Shown: piece by piece, positions 3,483 through 48,314 of the stretch
Numbering within the stretch: position 1 is the first letter of the stretch
Layout of the letters: each line of letters begins with the position of its first letter
DNA from: Bacteroidota bacterium
GTDB taxonomy: Bacteria > Bacteroidota > Ignavibacteria > Ignavibacteriales > Melioribacteraceae
Reading direction: 5' to 3'
Assembly: GCA_039714835.1 (NCBI GenBank)
Contig: JBDLIN010000001.1
Span: forward strand, 1 to 58,379
Length of the DNA: 58,379 nucleotides
Program-made: the position numbers and the translations under genes
Notes under the pieces: generated by a model
The model's database searches: none
What the model saw: only the letters and a program-made list of their open reading frames with translations
What the model was told of the DNA's origin: nothing

Positions 3483-5801
3483 CTAAGAATTTACATAAGC
3501 GTTTTGGTGTATTTTTAATGTACTCAAATCAAAATCTACATATTTCGTATTCGCTGCTGCAATTTGTCCCAATGCAATCCCGCCATCATTTGTAGGAACT
3601 CTTTGATGTATATAGACCTTACGATTATTGCTTTCCAACAATTCAATAGTTTTCTCAACCAAATAAATATTCTGAAAACAACCACCACTTAAGATAACTT
3701 TCTCTTCTCCAACTAACTGTGCGACATCCAATATTATCCTGGATAGAGTATTATGAAATTTTGTTGATATTTCAGAAATAGTAATCCCCATATTCAACTC
3801 AGATAAGATTGATTCTATCATTTTACTCCAATCAATCAGAATTTTTTCATTTTCAATTAACTCAAATTGATACTCTCCTGATATATTTTTATCAACTAGA
3901 AATTCTAATTTCATTGCTGACTGACCTTCATAGTTCGAAATACTTGAAACTCCGAGCAATGCTGAGACTGCATCAAATAATCTACCTACACTTGAGGTTT
4001 TTGGTGAGTTAATGTTTTTATTCAGCATTGATCTTAATATCTCTGTTTCATTGCTTGTAAAAGTGAGTTCTTCAATTAAGACATAGTTATTAAAGACATT
4101 CTCCCCGTACAGCTCATATAAAGCACCTAGAGCTGCTCGTCGGGCTTCTTTAATAGCCTTCTCCCCACCAGGCAAAGGGAATTGTTTAAATTGTGCGATA
4201 TGACTGAATTCATTTTCATTAGAGATGAAAAACTCTCCTCCCCAAATAGTATTATCGAAGCCATAACCAGTACCGTCCCATGCAACTCCTAACGCACTAC
4301 CGGTTACTTGGTTCTCGGCTCGGCATGATGCAACATGTGCATAATGATGCTGTATAGGTTTACATTTCCCTTCTGACAATTTTGCAAATAATGTCGATAA
4401 ATACTCAGGGTGCAGATCACAGATTATTTCTGAAGGTTCGGATTCATAAAGTCTTTCAAAATCATCAATGACTTTAATAAAAGCACTATAAGCAGACTCT
4501 GTTGAGAGATCACCTATATGTTGACTAACAAATACGTTTTCGTTTAGTTTTAATGCAATACTATTTTTTAGATGTCCTCCAACTGCTAGAATTGATTTTT
4601 GACTTTTATCTTCACTTAAATGAATTGGTAATGGAGCATATCCTCTAGCCCTTCTTAAAACCATTTCTCTACCTAGGACAACTCTAACAATTGAATCATC
4701 AACTTGTCTTACAATTGGTCTGTTATGAATTAAAAAATAATCTGCAATGCCAGTCAGTTTTTCAAATGCTTCTTTTTCATCAATACATATAGGTTCTTCA
4801 GATATGTTCCCACTTGTTGCAACTATTGGTAAATCAAGATTATTCAACAGTAAATGATGTATCGGAGTATAGGGCAGCATAATTCCAAGATAAGGATTCC
4901 CAGGAGCAACTGATTCAGCAACATCTGTGGAATTTTCATCTTTCCTTTTTAGTAAAACAATTGGAGATTCTGGTGATTGGAGAACTCTTTTCTCAAATTC
5001 AGACACATCGCAAGCTTCATTAATACTGTCGATCGAAGGGAACATTAATGCAAACGGTTTTTCATCTCTGTGTTTTCTTTCTCTTAACTGTTTAACTGCA
5101 TCATCATTTCTTGCGTCAACAATAAGTTGGTAACCTCCCAATCCTTTTAATGCAATGATTTTTCCTTCACGTACTTTATCAGCAGTTAGATCAATTGCTG
5201 AATTGCCAACCACCTTCTCCCCTTCACTACTGATCAGCTCAACTTGTGGTCCGCATTTTGGACATGCAGTTGGCTGAGCATGAAATCTACGATCCAATGG
5301 ATTCTCATATTCTGCTTGACATTCCTCACACATTATAAATTCTTTCATTGAAGTATTTGGACGATCATAAGGAAGAGATTCAATAATAGAAAATCGAGGT
5401 CCGCAGTTCGTGCAATTAATGAAAGGATAATGATACCTCCTATTTGAGGAATTATTCATCTCTTGTAAGCAATCTTCACAAACTGCAATATCCGGGAGTA
5501 TTATTGTTGATTTTTCATCTTCGCATTTACTATCAATGATTTTAAATTCTTCGAATCCAATCGAATCTAAAAATGAAAATTCCATTCCACTGATAAATGA
5601 AAGTTCAGGTTTTTCTTTTTCAATTTTTAAGATGAATTCTTCAAGAATATGTTTATCCCCTTCAGCCTCAATAAAAACTCCTTGTGATGAATTATAAACA
5701 AATCCTTTTAAATCAAGGTTTGCAGCAAGTCGGTATATAAAAGGGCGAAAACCAACTCCCTGTACAGCTCCTCGAATATTTATTTTTGCTCTGGTTATCA
5801 T
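3483..5801 (-). CDS. hypF: carbamoyltransferase HypF
   Basis: 772 aa. Acylphosphatase-like N-terminus (VQGVGFRPFIYRLA), two CxxC-x18-CxxC zinc fingers, YrdC-like and Kae1-like C-terminal domains. Confidence 0.92.
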   Translation of the reverse strand: MITRAKINIRGAVQGVGFRPFIYRLAANLDLKGFVYNSSQGVFIEAEGDKHILEEFILKIEKEKPELSFISGMEFSFLDSIGFEEFKIIDSKCEDEKSTIILPDIAVCEDCLQEMNNSSNRRYHYPFINCTNCGPRFSIIESLPYDRPNTSMKEFIMCEECQAEYENPLDRRFHAQPTACPKCGPQVELISSEGEKVVGNSAIDLTADKVREGKIIALKGLGGYQLIVDARNDDAVKQLRERKHRDEKPFALMFPSIDSINEACDVSEFEKRVLQSPESPIVLLKRKDENSTDVAESVAPGNPYLGIMLPYTPIHHLLLNNLDLPIVATSGNISEEPICIDEKEAFEKLTGIADYFLIHNRPIVRQVDDSIVRVVLGREMVLRRARGYAPLPIHLSEDKSQKSILAVGGHLKNSIALKLNENVFVSQHIGDLSTESAYSAFIKVIDDFERLYESEPSEIICDLHPEYLSTLFAKLSEGKCKPIQHHYAHVASCRAENQVTGSALGVAWDGTGYGFDNTIWGGEFFISNENEFSHIAQFKQFPLPGGEKAIKEARRAALGALYELYGENVFNNYVLIEELTFTSNETEILRSMLNKNINSPKTSSVGRLFDAVSALLGVSSISNYEGQSAMKLEFLVDKNISGEYQFELIENEKILIDWSKMIESILSELNMGITISEISTKFHNTLSRIILDVAQLVGEEKVILSGGCFQNIYLVEKTIELLESNNRKVYIHQRVPTNDGGIALGQIAAANTKYVDFDLSTLKIHQNAYVNS

Positions 5802-38479: not shown

Positions 38480-39370
38480 TTACACATGTTTCTCTGCATG
38501 ATAGGAACTTCTGACTAACGGACCAGATTCAACTGCCATGAATCCCATTTTTATTCCTTCTTCACGATACATATCAAATTCTTCAGGTGTTACAAATCGA
38601 TCAACAGGCAAATGATCCTTCGTTGGTTGGAGATATTGTCCAATAGTCATTATATCACATCCTTGCTCTCGAAGATCTTTCATGATCTCAATCACTTCAT
38701 CAGTTCTTTCACCAATTCCAACCATTATGCCACTTTTTGTTCTAAGCCCTTTATCTTTAAACCACTTTAATAATTTTAGACTTCTTTGATAATCAGCTTG
38801 TGGACGAACAGCATGATATAATCTTCCAACGGTTTCTAAATTATGATTGAGAATATCAGGTGGATGCTTCATAATAATTTCAAATGCTTCTTTCATTCCT
38901 TTAAAATCGGGGATGAGAATTTCTATTGTTGTTTCCGGCATTTTCTCTTTGATCAATTTGACAGTCTCAGAGAAAATTGTAGATCCTCCATCTTTCAGTT
39001 CATCACGATCAACAGAAGTGATAACAACATGTTTAAGCTCAAGATCAACTACAGATTCTGCTACCCTTCTTGGTTCGTCCAAGTCAAGTTCATTAGGGAT
39101 TCCCATCTTGACATTGCAGAAGCCACAACTACGAGTACAAGTATCTCCAAGAATCATAAAAGTGGCTGTTTTGTTATTCCAACATTCTGCTAAGTTCGGG
39201 CAGTTTGCTTCTTCACAAACTGTACTTAGTGATGATCGTCTCATTAAATCCAAAACATCTCGATAATTTTGTCCGCTTGGAAGTTTAACTTTTAACCAAT
39301 CCGGTCTTCTGCCTAGATCTTTTTTATCAACAGTATCTCTATATTTTCTTTGGTGCTTATTTAATTTCAT
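38480..39370 (-). CDS. lipA: lipoyl synthase
   Basis: CEEANCPNLAECW auxiliary cluster and CTRSCGFC radical-SAM motif. 296 aa. Confidence 0.92.
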   Translation of the reverse strand: MKLNKHQRKYRDTVDKKDLGRRPDWLKVKLPSGQNYRDVLDLMRRSSLSTVCEEANCPNLAECWNNKTATFMILGDTCTRSCGFCNVKMGIPNELDLDEPRRVAESVVDLELKHVVITSVDRDELKDGGSTIFSETVKLIKEKMPETTIEILIPDFKGMKEAFEIIMKHPPDILNHNLETVGRLYHAVRPQADYQRSLKLLKWFKDKGLRTKSGIMVGIGERTDEVIEIMKDLREQGCDIMTIGQYLQPTKDHLPVDRFVTPEEFDMYREEGIKMGFMAVESGPLVRSSYHAEKHV

Positions 39371-40630: not shown

Positions 40631-41845
40631 ATGTGGGAATTAATTCAAGCAAATAGACGAAAGTCGATTATCCTTTTTATTGCAATGGGATTTATCTTAA
40701 TTCTGTTAGGTTATCTCTTTGGTGTATCTTTTTTGGGTAATGATGGTGGAGTCTTTGGGATTTTTATTGCAATATTACTTTGGAGTATCCTCTCCTTAGT
40801 TAGCTACTTTTCCGGAAGTAAAATAATACTCACATTAAGCAATGCAAAAGAAGTTACAAAAGAAGTACATCCTCAATTATTCAACATTGTTGAAGAAATG
40901 ACAATTGCAGCAAACCTTCCAAAAATGCCTAGAGTCTTTATCATAAATGATCAAGCTTTAAACGCATTCGCGACCGGAAGAAAACCGGAAGATAGTGTAG
41001 TTGCAGTTACAGCTGGTCTTCTGAGTCAACTCAACCGTGACGAACTTCAGGGTGTTATTGCGCATGAAATTTCTCACATTACTAACCGTGATATTTTATT
41101 CATGACATTCGCTGGAATAATGTTGGGAGCAATTGTTATTATGTCTGAAGTATTTCTGCGTGGATATTGGATAGGAGGAAGTTCTCTAAATCGTTACAAA
41201 AACAAAGCATCTGGTGGAGGAAATGCACAAGCAGTTATTATGATTGTAGCTCTTATACTTGCTATACTTGCCCCCATTTTAACCAGGCTTCTATATTTTG
41301 CAATTTCTAGAAAACGTGAATATTTAGCCGACGCAAATGGTGCGAGACTTACACGCTATCCAGAAGGCCTTGCTTCAGCTTTAGAAAAATTATCACAAAG
41401 CAGATTTAATTTACGGTCTGCTGTTAAAGCAACTGCTGGATTGTACATTGTAAATCCACTAAAAAAAACTGGGATGAAAATTTCAGATCTATCAAGTACT
41501 CATCCTCCGATCAGTGAGAGAATTAGAATTTTAAGGGGTATGGCGCACGGCGTGAATTTCGCTGATTATCAGAATTCATACAATAAAATTAAAGGTGATT
41601 CAGAATCTATAATTCCGGCTTCAGGATTGAAGTTATCTGAAGATATTCCAATTAGAAGTGAACTTGATCCAATTCATAATTTGACTAAAAAGGAAACTCA
41701 ACGTAAACTCGGAAATATTATAATGAATGTAAATGATTATAAATTTTACAACTGCAGTTGCGGAGTTACAATTAAAATTCCACCAACATTTGAAGGTGAG
41801 ACAATTAAATGTCCAAGATGCGGAGAAATTAATATAACTAACTAA
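40631..41845 (+). CDS. M48-family (HtpX-like) zinc metalloprotease with C-terminal zinc ribbon
   Basis: HEISH zinc motif, downstream EYLAD Glu ligand, 4 TM segments. C-terminal CSCG...CPRCG ribbon. Confidence 0.8.
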   Translation: MWELIQANRRKSIILFIAMGFILILLGYLFGVSFLGNDGGVFGIFIAILLWSILSLVSYFSGSKIILTLSNAKEVTKEVHPQLFNIVEEMTIAANLPKMPRVFIINDQALNAFATGRKPEDSVVAVTAGLLSQLNRDELQGVIAHEISHITNRDILFMTFAGIMLGAIVIMSEVFLRGYWIGGSSLNRYKNKASGGGNAQAVIMIVALILAILAPILTRLLYFAISRKREYLADANGARLTRYPEGLASALEKLSQSRFNLRSAVKATAGLYIVNPLKKTGMKISDLSSTHPPISERIRILRGMAHGVNFADYQNSYNKIKGDSESIIPASGLKLSEDIPIRSELDPIHNLTKKETQRKLGNIIMNVNDYKFYNCSCGVTIKIPPTFEGETIKCPRCGEINITN

Positions 41846-41919
41846 ACAATACTCACATCGAAATTTTCTAATGTATCCTTAACATGTTTTAAGAACTGGC
41901 CCCCTAGCATTCCATCCAC
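41842..41919 (-). pseudogene. orphan duplicate of the last 24-26 codons of the E2 acyltransferase gene
   Basis: The reverse complement translates to LVDGMLGGQFLKHVKDTLENFDVSIV*, versus the E2 C-terminus LVDGMLGGQFLKHVKDTLENFDVSSI* (42631..42708). There is no upstream ORF body. Confidence 0.8.
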
Positions 41920-41947
41920 TAATTTGTATATATAACATGATTCATAA

Positions 41948-41970
41948 AATTATACTTGCAATTATACTTG
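41948..41970 (+). promoter_or_regulatory. tandem 11-bp repeat AATTATACTTG x2 (12-bp period) upstream of vapB; candidate antitoxin operator/promoter
   Basis: Copies at 41948..41958 and 41960..41970, 35-57 nt upstream of the vapB ATG. GGAG RBS at ~41995. Confidence 0.45.
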
Positions 41971-42004
41971 TTTTTTATCATATTGTATTTAAAAGGAGAT
42001 TAAA

Positions 42005-42235
42005 ATGCCACAAGTATCATTATATATTGATAATGAAACATTTAAGAAAATTGGCAAAGCTGCCAAAATTGAAAAAAAATCCATTTCCAAATGGGTTTCA
42101 TCAAAGATTATAACTTCACTAAGTAACTCATGGCCAACAGAATGGTTTAATCTTTTTGGATCATTAAACGATGAGACATTTACAGAACCGGATGAACTCC
42201 GTTTCAGTGAAGATAACAAGAGAGAAAAACTATGA
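42005..42235 (+). CDS. vapB: type II antitoxin (VapB-like, probable ribbon-helix-helix)
   Basis: 76 aa. N-terminal beta-strand/helix pattern VSLYIDNETFKKIGKAAK, acidic C-terminal tail. 4-nt overlap (ATGA) with the PIN toxin gene. Confidence 0.7.
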   Translation: MPQVSLYIDNETFKKIGKAAKIEKKSISKWVSSKIITSLSNSWPTEWFNLFGSLNDETFTEPDELRFSEDNKREKL

Positions 42236-42630
42236 AGTATTTTCTTGATACGAATATTTGTATTTACTTTCTAAAAGGATTATATCCTAGTATCAAAGAT
42301 AAATTTCAACAGATCAATCCAAATGATATAAAAATCCCCTCAATAGTTAAGGCTGAACTATTATATGGTATAGAGAAAAGTGTAAAGAAAAAAAATAATC
42401 TTGAACTAGTAAATAATTTTCTCTTCCCTTTTGAGATCGTACCATTTGATAGTAGTGCAGCAGAATTCTATTCAAAAATAAGAAGTTCGTTAGAAAAATC
42501 CGGATCAATAATTGGCCCTAACGATTTAATAATTGCTTCCATTGTTGCAGCAAATAAAGGAACTCTAATCTCTAATAATGAGAAGGAATTCAAGAGAATA
42601 AAAAATCTTCAAGTAAAAAACTGGATTTAA
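42232..42630 (+). CDS. vapC: type II toxin VapC (PIN-domain ribonuclease)
   Basis: MKYFLDTNICIYFL (Asp6), conserved acidic residues further on (AEL, NDLIIAS). 132 aa. Confidence 0.85.
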   Translation: MKYFLDTNICIYFLKGLYPSIKDKFQQINPNDIKIPSIVKAELLYGIEKSVKKKNNLELVNNFLFPFEIVPFDSSAAEFYSKIRSSLEKSGSIIGPNDLIIASIVAANKGTLISNNEKEFKRIKNLQVKNWI

Positions 42631-43938
42631 CTAAATACTACTTACATCAAAATTTTCTAATGTATCCTTAACATGTTTTAAGAACTGTCCCCCTAACATT
42701 CCATCCACCAAGCGATGATCATGGCTAATTGAAAGATACATCATAGGTTTTATAGTAATCGAATCTACTCCGTCAACTTCAACAACCACCGGCTTCTTAA
42801 TAACAGCCCCTACCCCAAGTATTCCTACTTCCGGTTGATTTATAATTGGTGTGCCAAACTGCAATCCAAAAATTCCGTAGTTAGTTATTGAGAATGTTCC
42901 ATTCATAATATCATCAGGTTTTAAACCTTTGTTTCTAGCCTTCTCACCTACCTGAGATATTGCTTTTGCGAATCCTCTTACACTTAAATTCTCAGCATTT
43001 TTAATATTCGGGACTATTAAACCGTTTGGTTCAACTGCAACGGCAATTCCCAGATTAATGAATTTCTTCATAACAATATTTTTTCCATCAACTGAGGAAT
43101 TCATTAAAGGAAATTCTTTTAGAGCATTCACACATGCATAAGATATGAATGCCATATATGTCAATTTAACTTTTTCTGTCTTCCATAAATGATCTTTATG
43201 CTCTTGGATATAGTTATGGATTCTACTCATATCAACTTCATTTACAGCAGTTACATGAACAGATGTATCCCGACTATGTATCATGTGCTCCATGATCTTT
43301 TCTCGAATATTATCCATCGGAATTATTTCGGTTTCATCGCTACTGGTTACATCCACTGATGTATCCTTAATTAATTTATCCTTTTTTGATTTTTGAAGTA
43401 CAACTCCCTGCTCCTTTAGCTCCAAGTATTTAAGTATATCTTTTTTGGAAACCCTTCCCTCAATACCAGTACCTTGAATCGTCTCAAGCTCTGTTAAAGA
43501 TAAATTTTCTTTTCGGGCAATACTAAGAACAAGTGGTGAATAAAACCGATTTGAATCTGCTATATCAATTTTTTGCTCCTCTTGATTTATCTCTACTGAT
43601 TCTTCAACAAAAACTTTATCAACTTGATCTTTTTCAAGAGTTGCTTCAATTTCTTTAGATTTTGTTTTTATCTCATCTGAAGTTTGTTCAGGAATCGATC
43701 CCTCTGAATCAATTATTGCAACTACTGTATCAACATCGACCGTTTCCTGTTCATTCACAAGAATTTCCATCAATACACCGTCTGCAGGAGAAGGAATTTC
43801 TGTGTCAACTTTATCTGTGGCAATTTCATAAATGATTTCATCCTTCTTTACTTTATCACCAACATTCTTATGCCATTTGATCACTGTACCTTCATTTATA
43901 CTTTCACCCATTTTGGGCATAATTACATCTATTTTCAT
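42631..43938 (-). CDS. dihydrolipoamide acyltransferase (E2) of a 2-oxoacid dehydrogenase complex
   Basis: Lipoyl domain with IATDKVDTEIPSP, peripheral subunit-binding domain (SPLVLSIARKENL), catalytic SISHDHRLVDG. Confidence 0.9.
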   Translation of the reverse strand: MKIDVIMPKMGESINEGTVIKWHKNVGDKVKKDEIIYEIATDKVDTEIPSPADGVLMEILVNEQETVDVDTVVAIIDSEGSIPEQTSDEIKTKSKEIEATLEKDQVDKVFVEESVEINQEEQKIDIADSNRFYSPLVLSIARKENLSLTELETIQGTGIEGRVSKKDILKYLELKEQGVVLQKSKKDKLIKDTSVDVTSSDETEIIPMDNIREKIMEHMIHSRDTSVHVTAVNEVDMSRIHNYIQEHKDHLWKTEKVKLTYMAFISYACVNALKEFPLMNSSVDGKNIVMKKFINLGIAVAVEPNGLIVPNIKNAENLSVRGFAKAISQVGEKARNKGLKPDDIMNGTFSITNYGIFGLQFGTPIINQPEVGILGVGAVIKKPVVVEVDGVDSITIKPMMYLSISHDHRLVDGMLGGQFLKHVKDTLENFDVSSI

Positions 43939-44021
43939 TTCATCTCTCCAATCAAAAATTAAATAATCCTAATGATTATTAACAGCATTTAAATAATAAA
44001 AACAACCTACAAATTATTTTT

Positions 44022-44130
44022 TGTCATTCCGGCAATCTTTTAGCCCGCCTTCTAAAGCACTTGTACGGCGGACAGGCCGGAATCTTTAACTATACTAGAG
44101 ATTCCCGATAAAAACATTCGGGAATGACAG
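44022..44130 (+). mobile_element. MITE-like two-hairpin element (same family as 3046..3121) carrying a nested ~33-nt GC-rich insert
   Basis: tgtcattccggcaatcttttagcc[cgccttctaaagcacttgtacggcggacaggcc]ggaatc...ATTCCCGA-taaaaacat-TCGGGAATgacag. Collinear with the reverse complement of 3046..3121, except for the bracketed insert (44046..44078). Confidence 0.55.
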
Positions 44131-44156
44131 TTTGAATATTTCAGAAGTCTTTATTG

Positions 44157-46226
44157 TTAATACAAGAGCAATTCTTTTAACTCAGTATAAATTTTATCCC
44201 GATTTGGAAGAACTTCCTTTTCCAAATTTGGATGATAAGGAATAAATGTATCCTTAGCAGCCACACGCCTTACGGGGCCATCCAAATATTCAAAGCATGA
44301 ATCAGTAATTCTTGCGCTGATTTCCGCACCAAATCCAGCGGTTAAAGTATCTTCGTGAATTACAATCGCTTTTCCGGTTTTTCGCACTGAATTAAAAATC
44401 GTTTCTTCATCTAGCGGATTCATCGTTCTGATATCAATTAGTTCGATTGAATGTCCCTCTTCCTTTAATTTACGAAGTGCAAAAGTTGCTTCGTGCACCA
44501 TTGCTCCATAAGTAATTATTGTTAAATCATTCCCTTTAATAATGGTATTCGCTTTACCAAAAGGTAGAAGATATTTATGATCCGGTTCAGGAGAACTTGC
44601 ATAACTTTGTCGATATAATCCCTTATGCTCCAAGAAAAGAACAGGATCATTTAATCTGAGTGCTGTCTTTAATAAACCTTTTGCATCAGCAGCACTTGAT
44701 GGATATGCTATAAGCAGACCTGGTACATGGGAGAAGAATCCTTCAATATTCTGGCTATGAAATAATCCACCATGAATAAAACCGCCAACAGCAACACGAA
44801 ATACCATTGGAGATGAGAATTGATTATTAGAACGGTAACGATATGTAACTAATTCGTCTCTCATCTGCATGAAGGCAGGCCAAATGTAATCGCCAAATTG
44901 AATTTCGACACATGGTTTTAGTCCTACTAATGCCATTCCAATTCCAATTCCAGCAATACTTGCCTCTGCTAAAGGTGAGTTAAATACTCTTTCTTCTCCG
45001 TACTTTGTTGATAGTCCCTTAGTAGAAGTAAAAACCCCGCCTTTTCTATCCGCAACATCCTCCCCAAAAACATAGATTTTCTCATTGATCTCCATCTCTT
45101 CATGAAGAGCGTGATTGATTGCATCTACCATTACAATAGGATTACCGGCCGGTTTTGATTTCTCATATTCCAGCCTATCTCTTTTTCCGCTCTCGTCTAA
45201 AATAAATCGAACAGCACTTTCAGCTTTAGGTTCATTCTGCCGAAGAGAGTATTCTGCTGCTTTTTCAATTTCTTTATTTAGTTCACTTTCAATTTTAGAA
45301 ACAAAATCTACACTAATTTTTTCTTCTTTGATTAAAACATCTTTAAGCTTTTGGATAGGATCTTTTTCTTGATCAGCCTCAATATCTTCTTTCTCTCTAT
45401 ATTTTCTTTGATCATCTGAGGAAGAATGGGATGCAAGTCGTACAACATGAGCTTCGATTAGAACTGGTCCGTTTCCATTACGGACATAGTCAAATGCTTG
45501 CTGCGCAACATCATAGCTTTTATTAAAATCTGTTCCATCTACTTCAACTTTTAGCAAATTTTCAAATCCACTCATTAATTGGGCTATGGAAGAATTCTTC
45601 CCACTATTTTGTGCTTCGACAGGAACGGATATCGCCAGTTTATTATTTTGTATAACAAAGATAACCGGCAGTTTCTCACGACTAGCCCAGTTAACAGCTT
45701 CATAAAATTCTCCCTCGCTCGTTGTTCCATCACCACTACTGACATAAGTGACAGCATTATTCCCTTTCCGTTTTAAGGCTAAGGCTGTACCAACAGCCTG
45801 GAGAAATTGAGTTCCGGTTGGGCTTGATTGCGCGGGAATATTCAATTCCTTAGAACCCCAGTGATTAGGCATTTGTCTCCCTCCGGTCATTGGGTCGGAG
45901 CCCTTGGCTAACATGTGTAAAAAGACATTATCAAGCTTTTCCCCAAGAGTTAGCAGAAAAGCAAGATCTCTATAATATGGATAAGCCCAATCAATACCAG
46001 GCTGCATCTGCATTCCAACTGCAATTTGAATTGCTTCATGCCCTGCAGCTGACATATGGAAATATGACTTACCTTGTTTGAGAAGGTTCATGATCTTATG
46101 ATCAGTTTTCCGAGTTAATAACATAGTTCTCAAAGCATTGATTCGAACTTTCTTATCAATTTTATCGGACTTGTTGTCTTTATTTATATTTTTCGTCTTC
46201 ATATCTATTTTATTTTCTGTTCTCAT
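44157..46226 (-). CDS. 2-oxoacid dehydrogenase E1 component, fused alpha and beta subunits (probably branched-chain type)
   Basis: 689 aa. ThDP-binding GDG(T)TSEG...N motif in the N-terminal half. Transketolase-like Pyr and C-terminal domains in the second half. Confidence 0.85.
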   Translation of the reverse strand: MRTENKIDMKTKNINKDNKSDKIDKKVRINALRTMLLTRKTDHKIMNLLKQGKSYFHMSAAGHEAIQIAVGMQMQPGIDWAYPYYRDLAFLLTLGEKLDNVFLHMLAKGSDPMTGGRQMPNHWGSKELNIPAQSSPTGTQFLQAVGTALALKRKGNNAVTYVSSGDGTTSEGEFYEAVNWASREKLPVIFVIQNNKLAISVPVEAQNSGKNSSIAQLMSGFENLLKVEVDGTDFNKSYDVAQQAFDYVRNGNGPVLIEAHVVRLASHSSSDDQRKYREKEDIEADQEKDPIQKLKDVLIKEEKISVDFVSKIESELNKEIEKAAEYSLRQNEPKAESAVRFILDESGKRDRLEYEKSKPAGNPIVMVDAINHALHEEMEINEKIYVFGEDVADRKGGVFTSTKGLSTKYGEERVFNSPLAEASIAGIGIGMALVGLKPCVEIQFGDYIWPAFMQMRDELVTYRYRSNNQFSSPMVFRVAVGGFIHGGLFHSQNIEGFFSHVPGLLIAYPSSAADAKGLLKTALRLNDPVLFLEHKGLYRQSYASSPEPDHKYLLPFGKANTIIKGNDLTIITYGAMVHEATFALRKLKEEGHSIELIDIRTMNPLDEETIFNSVRKTGKAIVIHEDTLTAGFGAEISARITDSCFEYLDGPVRRVAAKDTFIPYHPNLEKEVLPNRDKIYTELKELLLY

Positions 46227-46249
46227 TTTTTAACTATTGTTTTTAATTT

Positions 46250-46939
46250 TTATATATCCAACATCTGGGTTTTCACTTTATCATAAGAAAAGATTTCTTT
46301 AGCATTCTTAATAATTGCATTCTTAATATTTTGAATATCAAACGTCTGATCAAGTTCTTTTCCTAATGATGTCACTTCTTTATCTTCTATTCCACAAGGG
46401 ATAATTCCATTAAATAAATCCAAATCGGTATTTATATTAAAAGCAAATCCGTGCATTGTAATCCACTTGCTTATTTTAATCCCGATTGCACATATTTTTC
46501 TATCTTCAATCCATACTCCCGTATGTTCATTATTTCTAATAGTTTTTAATCCAAAATCATCGCATGTTTTAATAATAACCTCTTCTAAAGATCTGAGATA
46601 ACGATGAGCATCTCTTTCCCACTGGCCTAGATCAAAAATTGGATATCCAACAATTTGGCCCGGTCCGTGGTAGGTGATATCACCACCTCTATCAATATCA
46701 TAGACCTTGATACCCTTTGATTTTAGGAAATCATCATCCCCTATCAGATTATTTTTATCAGCAGTTTTACCTAAAGTGTAAGTGTTCGGATGTTCGAGTA
46801 AAAGTAGAGTATCAGGAATTAAATCATTTAATCTTTTTTCAAATAATGATTTTTGAAACTTCCAGGCAACGTCATAATCGATTAATCCTAAATCAATATA
46901 ATCAAGATCTCTATATATGGATTGATTTTCCATCTGCAT
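46250..46939 (-). CDS. lipB: lipoyl(octanoyl) transferase
   Basis: RGGDITYHGPGQ motif, catalytic KICAIG region. The start overlaps the lpd stop by 23-29 nt (alternative Met at 46933). Confidence 0.9.
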   Translation of the reverse strand: MQMENQSIYRDLDYIDLGLIDYDVAWKFQKSLFEKRLNDLIPDTLLLLEHPNTYTLGKTADKNNLIGDDDFLKSKGIKVYDIDRGGDITYHGPGQIVGYPIFDLGQWERDAHRYLRSLEEVIIKTCDDFGLKTIRNNEHTGVWIEDRKICAIGIKISKWITMHGFAFNINTDLDLFNGIIPCGIEDKEVTSLGKELDQTFDIQNIKNAIIKNAKEIFSYDKVKTQMLDI

Positions 46940-48314
46940 CCTCTGCAGCTTCCATAATTATCTCAGATAATGTTGGATGAGCATGAATTGTTCCTGCAAT
47001 CGTCTCTTCAGTTGCTTCTAATGATTTAGCAAGACCAAGCTCTGCTATTAATTCGGTTGCTTCAGATCCGATAAGATGAGCACCTAAAAGTTCACCATAT
47101 TTTTTATCGAAAATTAATTTCGCAAATCCTTCTCTCTCTCCTATTGCAGCAGCTTTACCACTTGCCGAAAATGGAAACTTCCCTATCTTTATATCATAAC
47201 CTAATGAAATAGCCTGCTCTTCTGTTAAACCAATACTTGCAACTTGCGGCTGACAATATGTACAGCCAGGAATACTCGAATAATCTATATCTTTCAATTC
47301 TTTACCATGAAACCTTTCAACACAATGAATACCTTCTGCTGATGCAACATGAGCTAATGCAGGTTGTCCAATCACATCACCAATAGCATAAATATTTTCA
47401 ACATTGGTCTCATAAGTTGATTTATCCACCTTAATACTATCTTTTACAGTTTCAATTCCTAGATTCTCTAAACCAATTCCATCGATATTAGGAGAAACTC
47501 CAATAGCATTTAATACTTTATCTGCAGTAATTTTTTCAATTTTTCCATTAATTTCAAAAACAACTTCAACATTTTCTCCATTTATATTCACTTTGCTAAC
47601 TTTCGCAGAATTATAAAAGGTAATCCCTCGTTTTGAGAGACTATTTTTCAGAGTTTCGGAAATTTCCTTGTCTTCCAATGGTAATATTGTTTCCATCATC
47701 TCAATGACAGTTACTTTCGTCCCAAGCACAGAATAAAAATATGCAAATTCAATCCCGATAACACCGCCGCCAACAATGACCAATTCTGAAGGAAGTTCAG
47801 AAAGGTTCATGGCTTCGCTGCTTGTAATTATCTTTTCCCTATCTACTGGAATTGAAGGAATGGATTTCGGTCTTGCTCCTGTAGCTATTATAATTCTATC
47901 AGAAATCACTGTATCAATTGAATTTCCATCGTCATCAAATACATCAATCTCTTTCGAAGAATTCAGTTTCCCAAATCCTTTAATAATATCTATTTTATTC
48001 TTTTTTATTAAATACTCAACACCTTTAACTATCTTTTTAGATACCGTTCTGCTACGCTTAATAATTTTTTCAAAATTAAAGCTTACATTTTCGACCGAAA
48101 TACCAAAATTCTTAGAATGATTTGAAATAAGGTCATATACTTCTGCATTTTTGAGTAATGATTTTGTAGGGATACATCCCCAATTCAAACATATTCCACC
48201 AAGCTTATCCTTTTCAACAATTACTGTTTTATAACCAAGTTGTGAAGCTCTAATTGCAGCAACATATCCACCAGGACCACCACCCAAAACGGCAACATCA
48301 TACTTTTTAGACAT
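46911..48314 (-). CDS. lpdA: dihydrolipoyl dehydrogenase (E3)
   Basis: GGGPGGYVAAIRA FAD motif, redox-active GGICLNWGCIPTK, C-terminal HAHPTLSE. Confidence 0.92.
   Translation of the reverse strand: MSKKYDVAVLGGGPGGYVAAIRASQLGYKTVIVEKDKLGGICLNWGCIPTKSLLKNAEVYDLISNHSKNFGISVENVSFNFEKIIKRSRTVSKKIVKGVEYLIKKNKIDIIKGFGKLNSSKEIDVFDDDGNSIDTVISDRIIIATGARPKSIPSIPVDREKIITSSEAMNLSELPSELVIVGGGVIGIEFAYFYSVLGTKVTVIEMMETILPLEDKEISETLKNSLSKRGITFYNSAKVSKVNINGENVEVVFEINGKIEKITADKVLNAIGVSPNIDGIGLENLGIETVKDSIKVDKSTYETNVENIYAIGDVIGQPALAHVASAEGIHCVERFHGKELKDIDYSSIPGCTYCQPQVASIGLTEEQAISLGYDIKIGKFPFSASGKAAAIGEREGFAKLIFDKKYGELLGAHLIGSEATELIAELGLAKSLEATEETIAGTIHAHPTLSEIIMEAAEDADGKSIHI

Follow-up and report, generated by a model that had tools for sequence, protein, structure and literature searches.

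A vapBC cassette bracketed by two copies of an E2 gene end in a Melioribacteraceae contig, with probable traces of recombination with a related lineage

How does the 3' end of a housekeeping gene come to stand on both sides of a toxin–antitoxin cassette? The question is raised by the first 58,379 nucleotides (nt) of contig JBDLIN010000001.1 (assembly GCA_039714835.1, family Melioribacteraceae), a stretch analysed as a whole and referred to below as the window. Here a vapBC pair separates the gene of an M48-family metalloprotease (M48) from the convergent gene of E2, a dihydrolipoamide acyltransferase, and the last codons of E2 occur a second time beside the protease gene. Our reading, to which we assign a probability of about 0.6, is that the two copies represent alleles of the final 26 E2 codons, that these diverged in related lineages while still coding, and that recombination juxtaposed them when the cassette was imported together with an E2 end, one side being resolved by homologous exchange within E2 and the other by an illegitimate join.

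A repeat search reported a single family in the window, an 84-nt direct repeat at 41839-41922 and 42628-42711, with 77 of 84 positions identical (92%) and a start-to-start spacing of 789. Read on the minus strand, both copies translate to LVDGMLGGQFLKHVKDTLENFDVS, after which the left ends in IV and a stop and the right in SI and a stop. The functional E2 gene ends with the right copy (42631-42711, ending …DVSSI). The left is an orphan of the last 26 codons without a gene body (41842-41922, minus strand, codons ~409–435 plus stop, LVDGMLGGQFLKHVKDTLENFDVSIV), where tblastn matches are limited to E2 residues 408–433 and a minus-strand stop codon lies 11 codons upstream; the same search revealed no further E2-like sequence that could have served as a paralogous source of the orphan within the window. 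The stop of the orphan (CTA, 41842-41844) overlaps that of M48 (TAA, 41843-41845). The first three nucleotides of the repeat lie outside the E2 stop, being the vapC stop TAA on the right and the T and AA of the M48 codons ACT AAC on the left, a match that is probably due to chance. Within the repeat lies an identical core of 38 nt (41861-41898 and 42650-42687), found exactly twice in the 58-kb window against zero occurrences expected by chance and long enough for RecA-type exchange between the copies. On either strand the repeats fold no better than shuffled sequence (z-scores +1.55 to -0.16), and no terminator is predicted in them. The first-pass annotation, made from the letters of the window, had described two copies of the E2 end of ~80 bp, the left an orphan and the right genuine, with the orphan stop overlapping that of M48. 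Repeat search and tblastn bear this out, with the extent revised to 84 nt and the three outermost nucleotides assigned to sequence beyond the gene.

The differences between the copies carry most of the argument. Seven nucleotides differ, of which five are synonymous (TTA/TTG, CTA/TTA, GGC/GGA, TTC/TTT and GTG/GTA) and two are replacements in the last two codons (ATT/AGT and GTT/ATT); the codon comparison thus agrees with the earlier claim of five synonymous changes across 24 codons followed by two differing residues. The Nei–Gojobori method counts 15.3 synonymous sites, of which 5 differ, and 62.7 non-synonymous sites, of which 2 differ; the resulting synonymous (dS) and non-synonymous (dN) substitutions per site are 0.43 and 0.03. 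Random placement of seven substitutions would yield five or more synonymous ones with a probability of 0.0035–0.036, for transition/transversion weights of 1–8; for five out of five within the 24 identical codons the figure is 0.0002–0.003. Since such a bias is unlikely to arise by chance, the copies appear to have diverged as coding sequence in separate lineages. They also share states that occur in no relative, such as Gln for Met at codon 417, which marks them as sister alleles of closely related lineages. Not one change is seen at the ~58 non-synonymous sites of the 24 shared codons, so that decay of the orphan has not begun and the orphaning must be recent. Its time as non-coding DNA is thereby limited to under ~0.05 neutral substitutions per site, compared with ~0.4 separating the copies at synonymous sites.

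The DNA between the copies, ~0.7 kb, comprises a 14-nt segment, a short palindrome, a tandem operator-like repeat, vapB and vapC. The 14-nt segment (41923..41936, TTTGTATATATAAC) lies between the orphan and conserved cassette DNA and matches none of the retrieved loci; homology to the cassette type represented by locus L163 starts at ~41937, and we place the illegitimate junction at 41922/41923. The operator-like direct repeat upstream of vapB (41949..41970, plus strand; ATTATACTTGC/AATTATACTTG with an 11-nt period, in full ATTATACTTGCAATTATACTTG) is kept in all nine aligned cassettes, and a sigma-70-like hexamer pair, matched by consensus (TTCATA-16-TATACT, 41941-41968), overlaps it. The open reading frame (ORF) vapB encodes a putative antitoxin of 76 residues (42005..42235, plus strand), and its stop overlaps the start of vapC by 4 nt (ATGA). 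The vapC gene (42232..42630, plus strand) encodes a PIN-domain toxin of 132 residues, and its stop TAA (42628-42630) is immediately adjacent to that of E2. Annotation had placed a promoter region and vapB–vapC between the repeats, ending at the vapC stop; the family matches and the conserved operator-like repeat support this.

VapC matches Pfam PIN at 64 bits (cut-off 23.6; E = 2.6e-17) and exceeds the cut-off of the NCBIfam equivalog NF047863 (160.5 bits against 140). Its best relative of solved structure is PDB 3zvk (E = 6.9e-28), aligned end to end. By inspection, the acidic PIN residues D6 (LDTN), E42 (KAEL), D98 (PNDL) and E120 (KEF) are present and sit in conserved blocks of that alignment. 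VapB falls in no Pfam or NCBIfam family, its sole match being a weak one to RHH_7 (E = 0.084), and a partner of 76 residues precedes vapC at every homologous locus. On these matches, the cassette is a predicted type II toxin–antitoxin module of the tRNA(fMet)-specific VapC type, with toxicity and neutralisation likewise predicted. It resembles the known systems of this type (the VapC proteins of Leptospira, Shigella and Salmonella, and VapBC2 of Rickettsia felis, PDB 3zvk) in its 132-residue PIN toxin above the equivalog cut-off, in the small upstream partner overlapping by ATGA and in the tandem operator-like repeat of its promoter. Unlike them, its antitoxin matches no curated family and, within this family of bacteria, the module keeps a fixed stop-to-stop position beside a convergent housekeeping gene.

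Related loci were collected by scanning a genome collection (metagenome-assembled genomes (MAGs) of Ignavibacteriales/Melioribacteraceae) and metagenomes with M48. The closest relative found, L081 (M48 88% identical in protein, ~85% nucleotide identity overall), has an empty site, as have L005/L133 and L086: M48 and E2 converge and their stops overlap by 2 nt, the same geometry as at the junction of M48 and the orphan in the window. Such a site with overlapping stops had been predicted beforehand. Among the loci examined, no relative lacking vapBC carries two copies of the E2 end, an arrangement that would have spoken against the import of the cassette. In L006, L162 and L167, vapBC lies between M48 and E2, and in L161 and L163–166 it adjoins E2 with other left neighbours. 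In the window and in at least five other lineages, represented by L006, L161, L162 and L163–166, no nucleotide separates the vapC stop from that of E2, and the left neighbour varies; L167/168 have 245 nt of small repeats between the two genes, and L178 has a terminator spacer of 91 nt. At 68–69% VapC identity the module occurs at unrelated loci without flanking repeats, and none were found around the more distant vapBC cassettes of L173–177 or the TumE-type insert of L169–171. Taken together, vapBC placed stop-to-stop against the E2 3' end is a presence/absence polymorphism in Ignavibacteriales/Melioribacteraceae.

Two further loci bear scars of a comparable kind. In L161, which comes from another assembly and has a different left-hand gene, an independent orphan E2 end with 70 open codons lies to the left of vapB. 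It is identical to the real E2 end of that locus at 161 of 198 nt (dN 0.12, dS 1.03), and its ratio of non-synonymous to synonymous differences per site (pN/pS) of 0.20 lies at the top of the values obtained when functional E2 genes are compared between lineages (0.08–0.18). Identity rises along it from 67–70% distally to 87–100% near the stop, with an identical stretch of 39 nt over the same codons as the core in the window. L004/L084 instead show M48 and vapBC followed by a frameshifted E2 remnant of 45 nt, then an unrelated gene and no E2; in L001 and L082, the gene that ends this array directly follows M48, with neither vapBC nor E2. A piece of E2 where no E2 exists indicates that the cassette carried part of that gene in.

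The types of antitoxin point the same way. VapB sequences of the window, L004 and L161 are 74–82% identical to one another, those of L006 and L163 are 84% identical and those of L162 and L167 79%, while the type found at the scarred loci shares 57–68% identity with the others. Scars occur in three of three loci of this type and in none of five other lineages (exact P ~0.02, under a grouping made post hoc). E2 follows a different pattern: the window and L161 are 75% identical over the last 130 residues of E2 and 80% in VapB, as against 91% and 68% for L161 and L162. The E2 of the window groups with L081 (95% over the last 130 residues) and the clade of L169–171 (~74% over the full length), the rest of which group lacks the cassette. 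This conflict between VapB type and E2, together with the cassette-free E2 clade, favours a horizontal arrival of the cassette type. That cassette and E2 end form a travelling unit is likewise supported by the stop-to-stop junction elsewhere, the remnant in L004 and the orphan in L161.

The history that we favour would run as follows. DNA of a fairly close relative, consisting of promoter, vapB, vapC and an E2 end, would have entered a genome with an empty M48/E2 site. Its right side would have been resolved by homologous exchange within E2 and its left end joined illegitimately to the resident E2 at codon 409, as in homology-facilitated illegitimate recombination (HFIR). The resident E2 end would thereby have been cut off and left beside M48 as the 81-nt orphan, the incoming copy completing the gene. 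In a variant with the same product, a circle of ~789 nt would have integrated by a single crossover in the core, the junction of the circle reading vapC end, E2 end and TTTGTATATA. Recombination through the 38-nt core could in turn excise the cassette precisely and restore the empty site. L004 would be the mirror image, anchored in M48 and joined illegitimately within the E2 end of the donor.

Products of HFIR have one junction within homology to the recipient, and the other joins non-homologous DNA, usually at 3–8 nt of microhomology; the process has reportedly been observed in naturally transformable Acinetobacter, Streptococcus pneumoniae and Pseudomonas stutzeri. In the window, the right side is continuous E2, and on the left, at 41922/41923, E2 codon 409 is joined to the cassette without homology, with ACTAA as candidate microhomology. 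On the import reading, the likeness would extend to the one-sided anchor in homologous DNA (E2 in the window, M48 in L004), to the joining of the other side without homology, possibly through those 5 nt, and to the absence of any need for mobile-element genes. The cases differ in that HFIR was seen experimentally, whereas here it is deduced from natural genomes, and in that the illegitimate joint falls within a region that the donor also carries, leaving a duplicated gene end.

Several observations weigh against this reading, or against its simplest form. When the changes are polarised against L081 and other relatives, the derived synonymous ones fall on the branch of the orphan, unambiguously so at sites 24 and 63, and the real copy equals L081 at all five synonymous sites. 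Of 14 synonymous sites, the real copy differs from L081 at four and the orphan at nine, tiny numbers in either case. The greater distance of the orphan sits badly with a picture in which the orphan is the resident copy, if L081 stands nearer to the recipient, although the counts are too small to decide. Had the donor carried M48 on the left, ordinary homologous recombination on both sides would be expected to insert the cassette cleanly. The ACTAA motif at the left junction is a candidate 5-nt microhomology at most. No sequence of donor or recipient above ~85% nucleotide identity was present in the searched collections, and protein searches gave best matches of 79% for VapC and ~74–75% for full-length E2; exact-protein look-ups of both returned no other contig. 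We infer the immigrant copy by parsimony, as we do the molecular pathway, and the direction of the event is not proven. The earlier proposal of a cassette imported with a diverged E2 end therefore holds in so far as two alleles were juxtaposed by recombination with a relative, the naming of the immigrant being a matter of parsimony only.

The same observations lend some weight to a reversed event, which we nonetheless consider unlikely. In this scenario, the cassette was resident in a clean M48–vapBC–E2 site, and a relative's DNA with an empty site (M48 3' end and E2 end), anchored in M48, was joined illegitimately at ACTAA just past the M48 stop without displacing the cassette, making the orphan the immigrant. 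The orphan branch would then bear the five synonymous differences as derived changes while the real copy matches L081, as is seen. The end of the orphan (…CCACTAA) and that of M48 (AACTAACTAA) have ACTAA in common where the real copy reads CCACCAA, and the junction of M48 and the orphan has exactly the geometry of the empty-site allele. Loss of an addictive toxin–antitoxin pair would moreover be counter-selected, which would favour aberrant products. The orphan could accordingly, at an equally low probability, be the scar of a failed eviction, in which empty-site DNA invaded a holder of vapBC, clean replacement would have released VapC toxicity, and only an aberrant recombinant that kept the cassette survived. 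More broadly, on that improbable reading a toxin–antitoxin pair attached to a highly conserved gene end would employ it as a portable homology handle, by which the pair could spread and resist removal across species with no mobile-element genes. Against this, two events are required, an earlier clean gain and then the capture, and both the closest relative and the rest of the E2 clade of the window lack the cassette. The scar in L004, an E2 fragment in a region without E2, is left unexplained, and no discontinuity in synonymous divergence from L081 was detected at the M48 3' end.

A history in two steps is less probable again. The E2 end would have been duplicated in situ at or after insertion of the cassette, and one copy later overwritten by allelic recombination with a relative, the differences post-dating the duplication. 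Either copy with its flanks would be a normal substrate for allelic replacement, and E2 looks mosaic relative to L081: the proportion of differing synonymous sites (pS) is 0.64 for E2 as against 0.44 for M48 and 0.47 for LemA, and over 42631-43524 the differences are blocky, being sparse at codons ~313–368 and ~411–435 and dense at ~287–312 and ~369–410. This pattern suggests a recombination mosaic in the lineage of the window or in that of L081. Sliding-window comparison with L081, in nucleotide identity and in synonymous divergence, revealed no breakpoint tied to the repeat. The proposal is less parsimonious than import, offers no mechanism for a duplication of 81 nt (window) or 210 nt (L161) on the far side of the cassette, and requires a replacement tract to span a very short target, as the differences flank the identical core on both sides.

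More doubtful still is integration of a circular cassette of ~789 nt, consisting of vapBC and one E2 end, by a site-specific recombinase acting in trans. Direct repeats of a gene 3' end around an insert are the classic picture of attL and attR, and an identical core between diverged arms, with its 39-nt counterpart over the same codons in L161, would fit it. The neighbours of the insert are LipA, a zinc-ribbon protein, LemA and M48 on one side and E2, E1, LplA/B and E3 on the other, and neither in nor beside the 0.7-kb insert was a recombinase (integrase or transposase), terminal inverted repeat or RNA structure found. A site-specific system is further disfavoured because the core differs between the window and L161 at ~8 of 36 positions and the duplicated length is 81 nt in one and ~210 nt in the other; in addition, L173, L175 and most E2-linked cassettes have no flanking repeat. 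Integrative elements that target gene 3' ends do share with this locus the displacement of the native 3' end beyond the insert and the restoration of the gene by a slightly different copy. They differ from it in that the locus has neither integrase nor conserved core, that its duplication length varies, and that its insert measures only 0.7 kb.

An assembly artefact, a contig chimera of two co-occurring strains with the empty site in one and the cassette in the other, is very improbable. The assembly is of metagenome type and the copies resemble alleles of two strains or species, but a mis-join needs a shared k-mer and the junction of orphan and cassette shares only the 5 nt ACTAA; the copies are non-identical, hence no collapsed or expanded repeat, and L161 presents an analogous structure in an independent assembly of another organism. 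Least probable of all, and already judged the poorer account in the first-pass annotation, is duplication of the E2 end in situ with later neutral decay of the orphan, on paper the simplest route and one compatible with all polarised changes lying on the orphan branch, but opposed by the purely synonymous changes of the 24 shared codons, four of the five running from AT to GC in a genome of ~33% GC, by the lack of any non-synonymous, frameshift or stop change there, and by an L161 orphan with a similarly low dN/dS of ~0.1–0.2.

Other classes of element were considered and rejected. An integron gene cassette does not fit an insert with its own conserved promoter and operator, no inverted repeat at its ends, no structured element in the repeats and no intI or array. 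A transposon, insertion sequence or miniature inverted-repeat transposable element (MITE) with target-site duplication is at odds with the lack of terminal inverted repeats and with an 84-nt duplication whose differences are mainly synonymous. An integrase-mediated element was set aside on the absence of a recombinase among the neighbours and on the differing core and repeat length in L161. A known analogue is ccdO157, a chromosomal toxin–antitoxin islet at a fixed intergenic site between folA and apaH in E. coli. Islets of this type likewise show presence or absence of a bare toxin–antitoxin pair between conserved genes, with some copies apparently decaying (here vapC of L006, which has an internal stop). 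They differ from the present case, in which the end of a flanking gene is duplicated and the alleles of both partners are preserved.

The patchy distribution of bare chromosomal toxin–antitoxin pairs is known, and their movement without transposases or integrases is usually only assumed; one-sided homologous recombination combined with an illegitimate join has been shown mainly in laboratory transformation experiments. Literature searches returned no directly relevant report of HFIR moving toxin–antitoxin cassettes or of such cassettes lying between duplicated gene ends. Under the import that we favour, both recombination partners are readable in one locus as resident and immigrant alleles of the same 26 codons, and the window with its relatives (an empty site, a clean occupied site, a second orphan and a mirror scar) would provide a natural example of cassette transfer without mobile-element machinery. 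The example is tidy and not unprecedented: a known type of toxin–antitoxin module and a known class of recombination, with unusually readable scars, and no new kind of system.

M48 occupies 40631..41845 on the plus strand (Pfam Peptidase_M48, E = 1.6e-33) and has a C-terminal zinc ribbon; E2, of 435 residues, occupies 42631..43938 on the minus strand (Pfam 2-oxoacid_dh, 6.2e-75, with Biotin_lipoyl and E3_binding) and, from the identity of its neighbours, belongs to a 2-oxoacid dehydrogenase operon E3–LplA/B–E1–E2. Genes related to lipoate are split in the window, with LipA at 38480-39370 and E2–E1–LplA/B–E3 at 42631-48314, both on the minus strand; the block between LipA and E2, comprising a zinc-ribbon gene, LemA, M48 and vapBC, has the opposite orientation. 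In L171, the order E3–LplA–E1–E2–LipA is contiguous on a single strand.

Some of the related cassettes have features of their own. In L161, the 24-nt filler between orphan and cassette (3681-3705, TTCTAATATAACCCAACATTTTTA) has the 9-mer TAATATAAC in common with the last codons of M48 in the window; the end of a donor M48 may have travelled with the cassette and left this remnant, a lead only, with a post hoc P of ~0.1. In L167 (3420-3704 and 4482-4627; also in L168), vapBC is flanked by MITE-like or repetitive extragenic palindrome-like small repeats, a unit of ~31 nt (TTTCAAAAGTTCCTTTCTCTAAAA...) in three copies and a hairpin-containing unit of 35 nt (GCGAATCGGGAGATTCGCTGCTACATTTTT) in two. 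In L006 (7289-7914; OZ245062.1, a complete MAG chromosome), an in-frame stop interrupts vapC at codon 28, and ATA replaces ATG as the first codon of vapB. This cassette looks inactivated, which could reflect real decay or long-read error. In L178 (1-55) and L179 (1-40), two public metagenome contigs, an Illumina adapter (GTGACTGGAGTTCAGACGTGTGCTCTTCCGATCT) forms the start of the contig and lies directly upstream of vapB, so that the left context there is an artefact and unusable.

The site itself accepts other inserts. In L170 (4897-5549; also L169, 4893-5183), members of a sister clade, an ORF of 96 residues and a TumE-family protein of 121 residues directly follow the E2 stop; the E2 of L169/L170 is ~74% identical to that of the window and LipA is next on the same strand, and in L171 nothing lies between E2 and LipA. 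The E2 3' end thus looks like a recurrent landing site for toxin–antitoxin-like pairs in Ignavibacteriales. At the M48/E2 junction, which is a variable hotspot, L083 (6213-9369) carries a block of ~3 kb with four or five genes, the first resembling by eye a TetR-type regulator, and L003 (7213-7954) carries a small ORF for a secreted or lipoprotein-like product.

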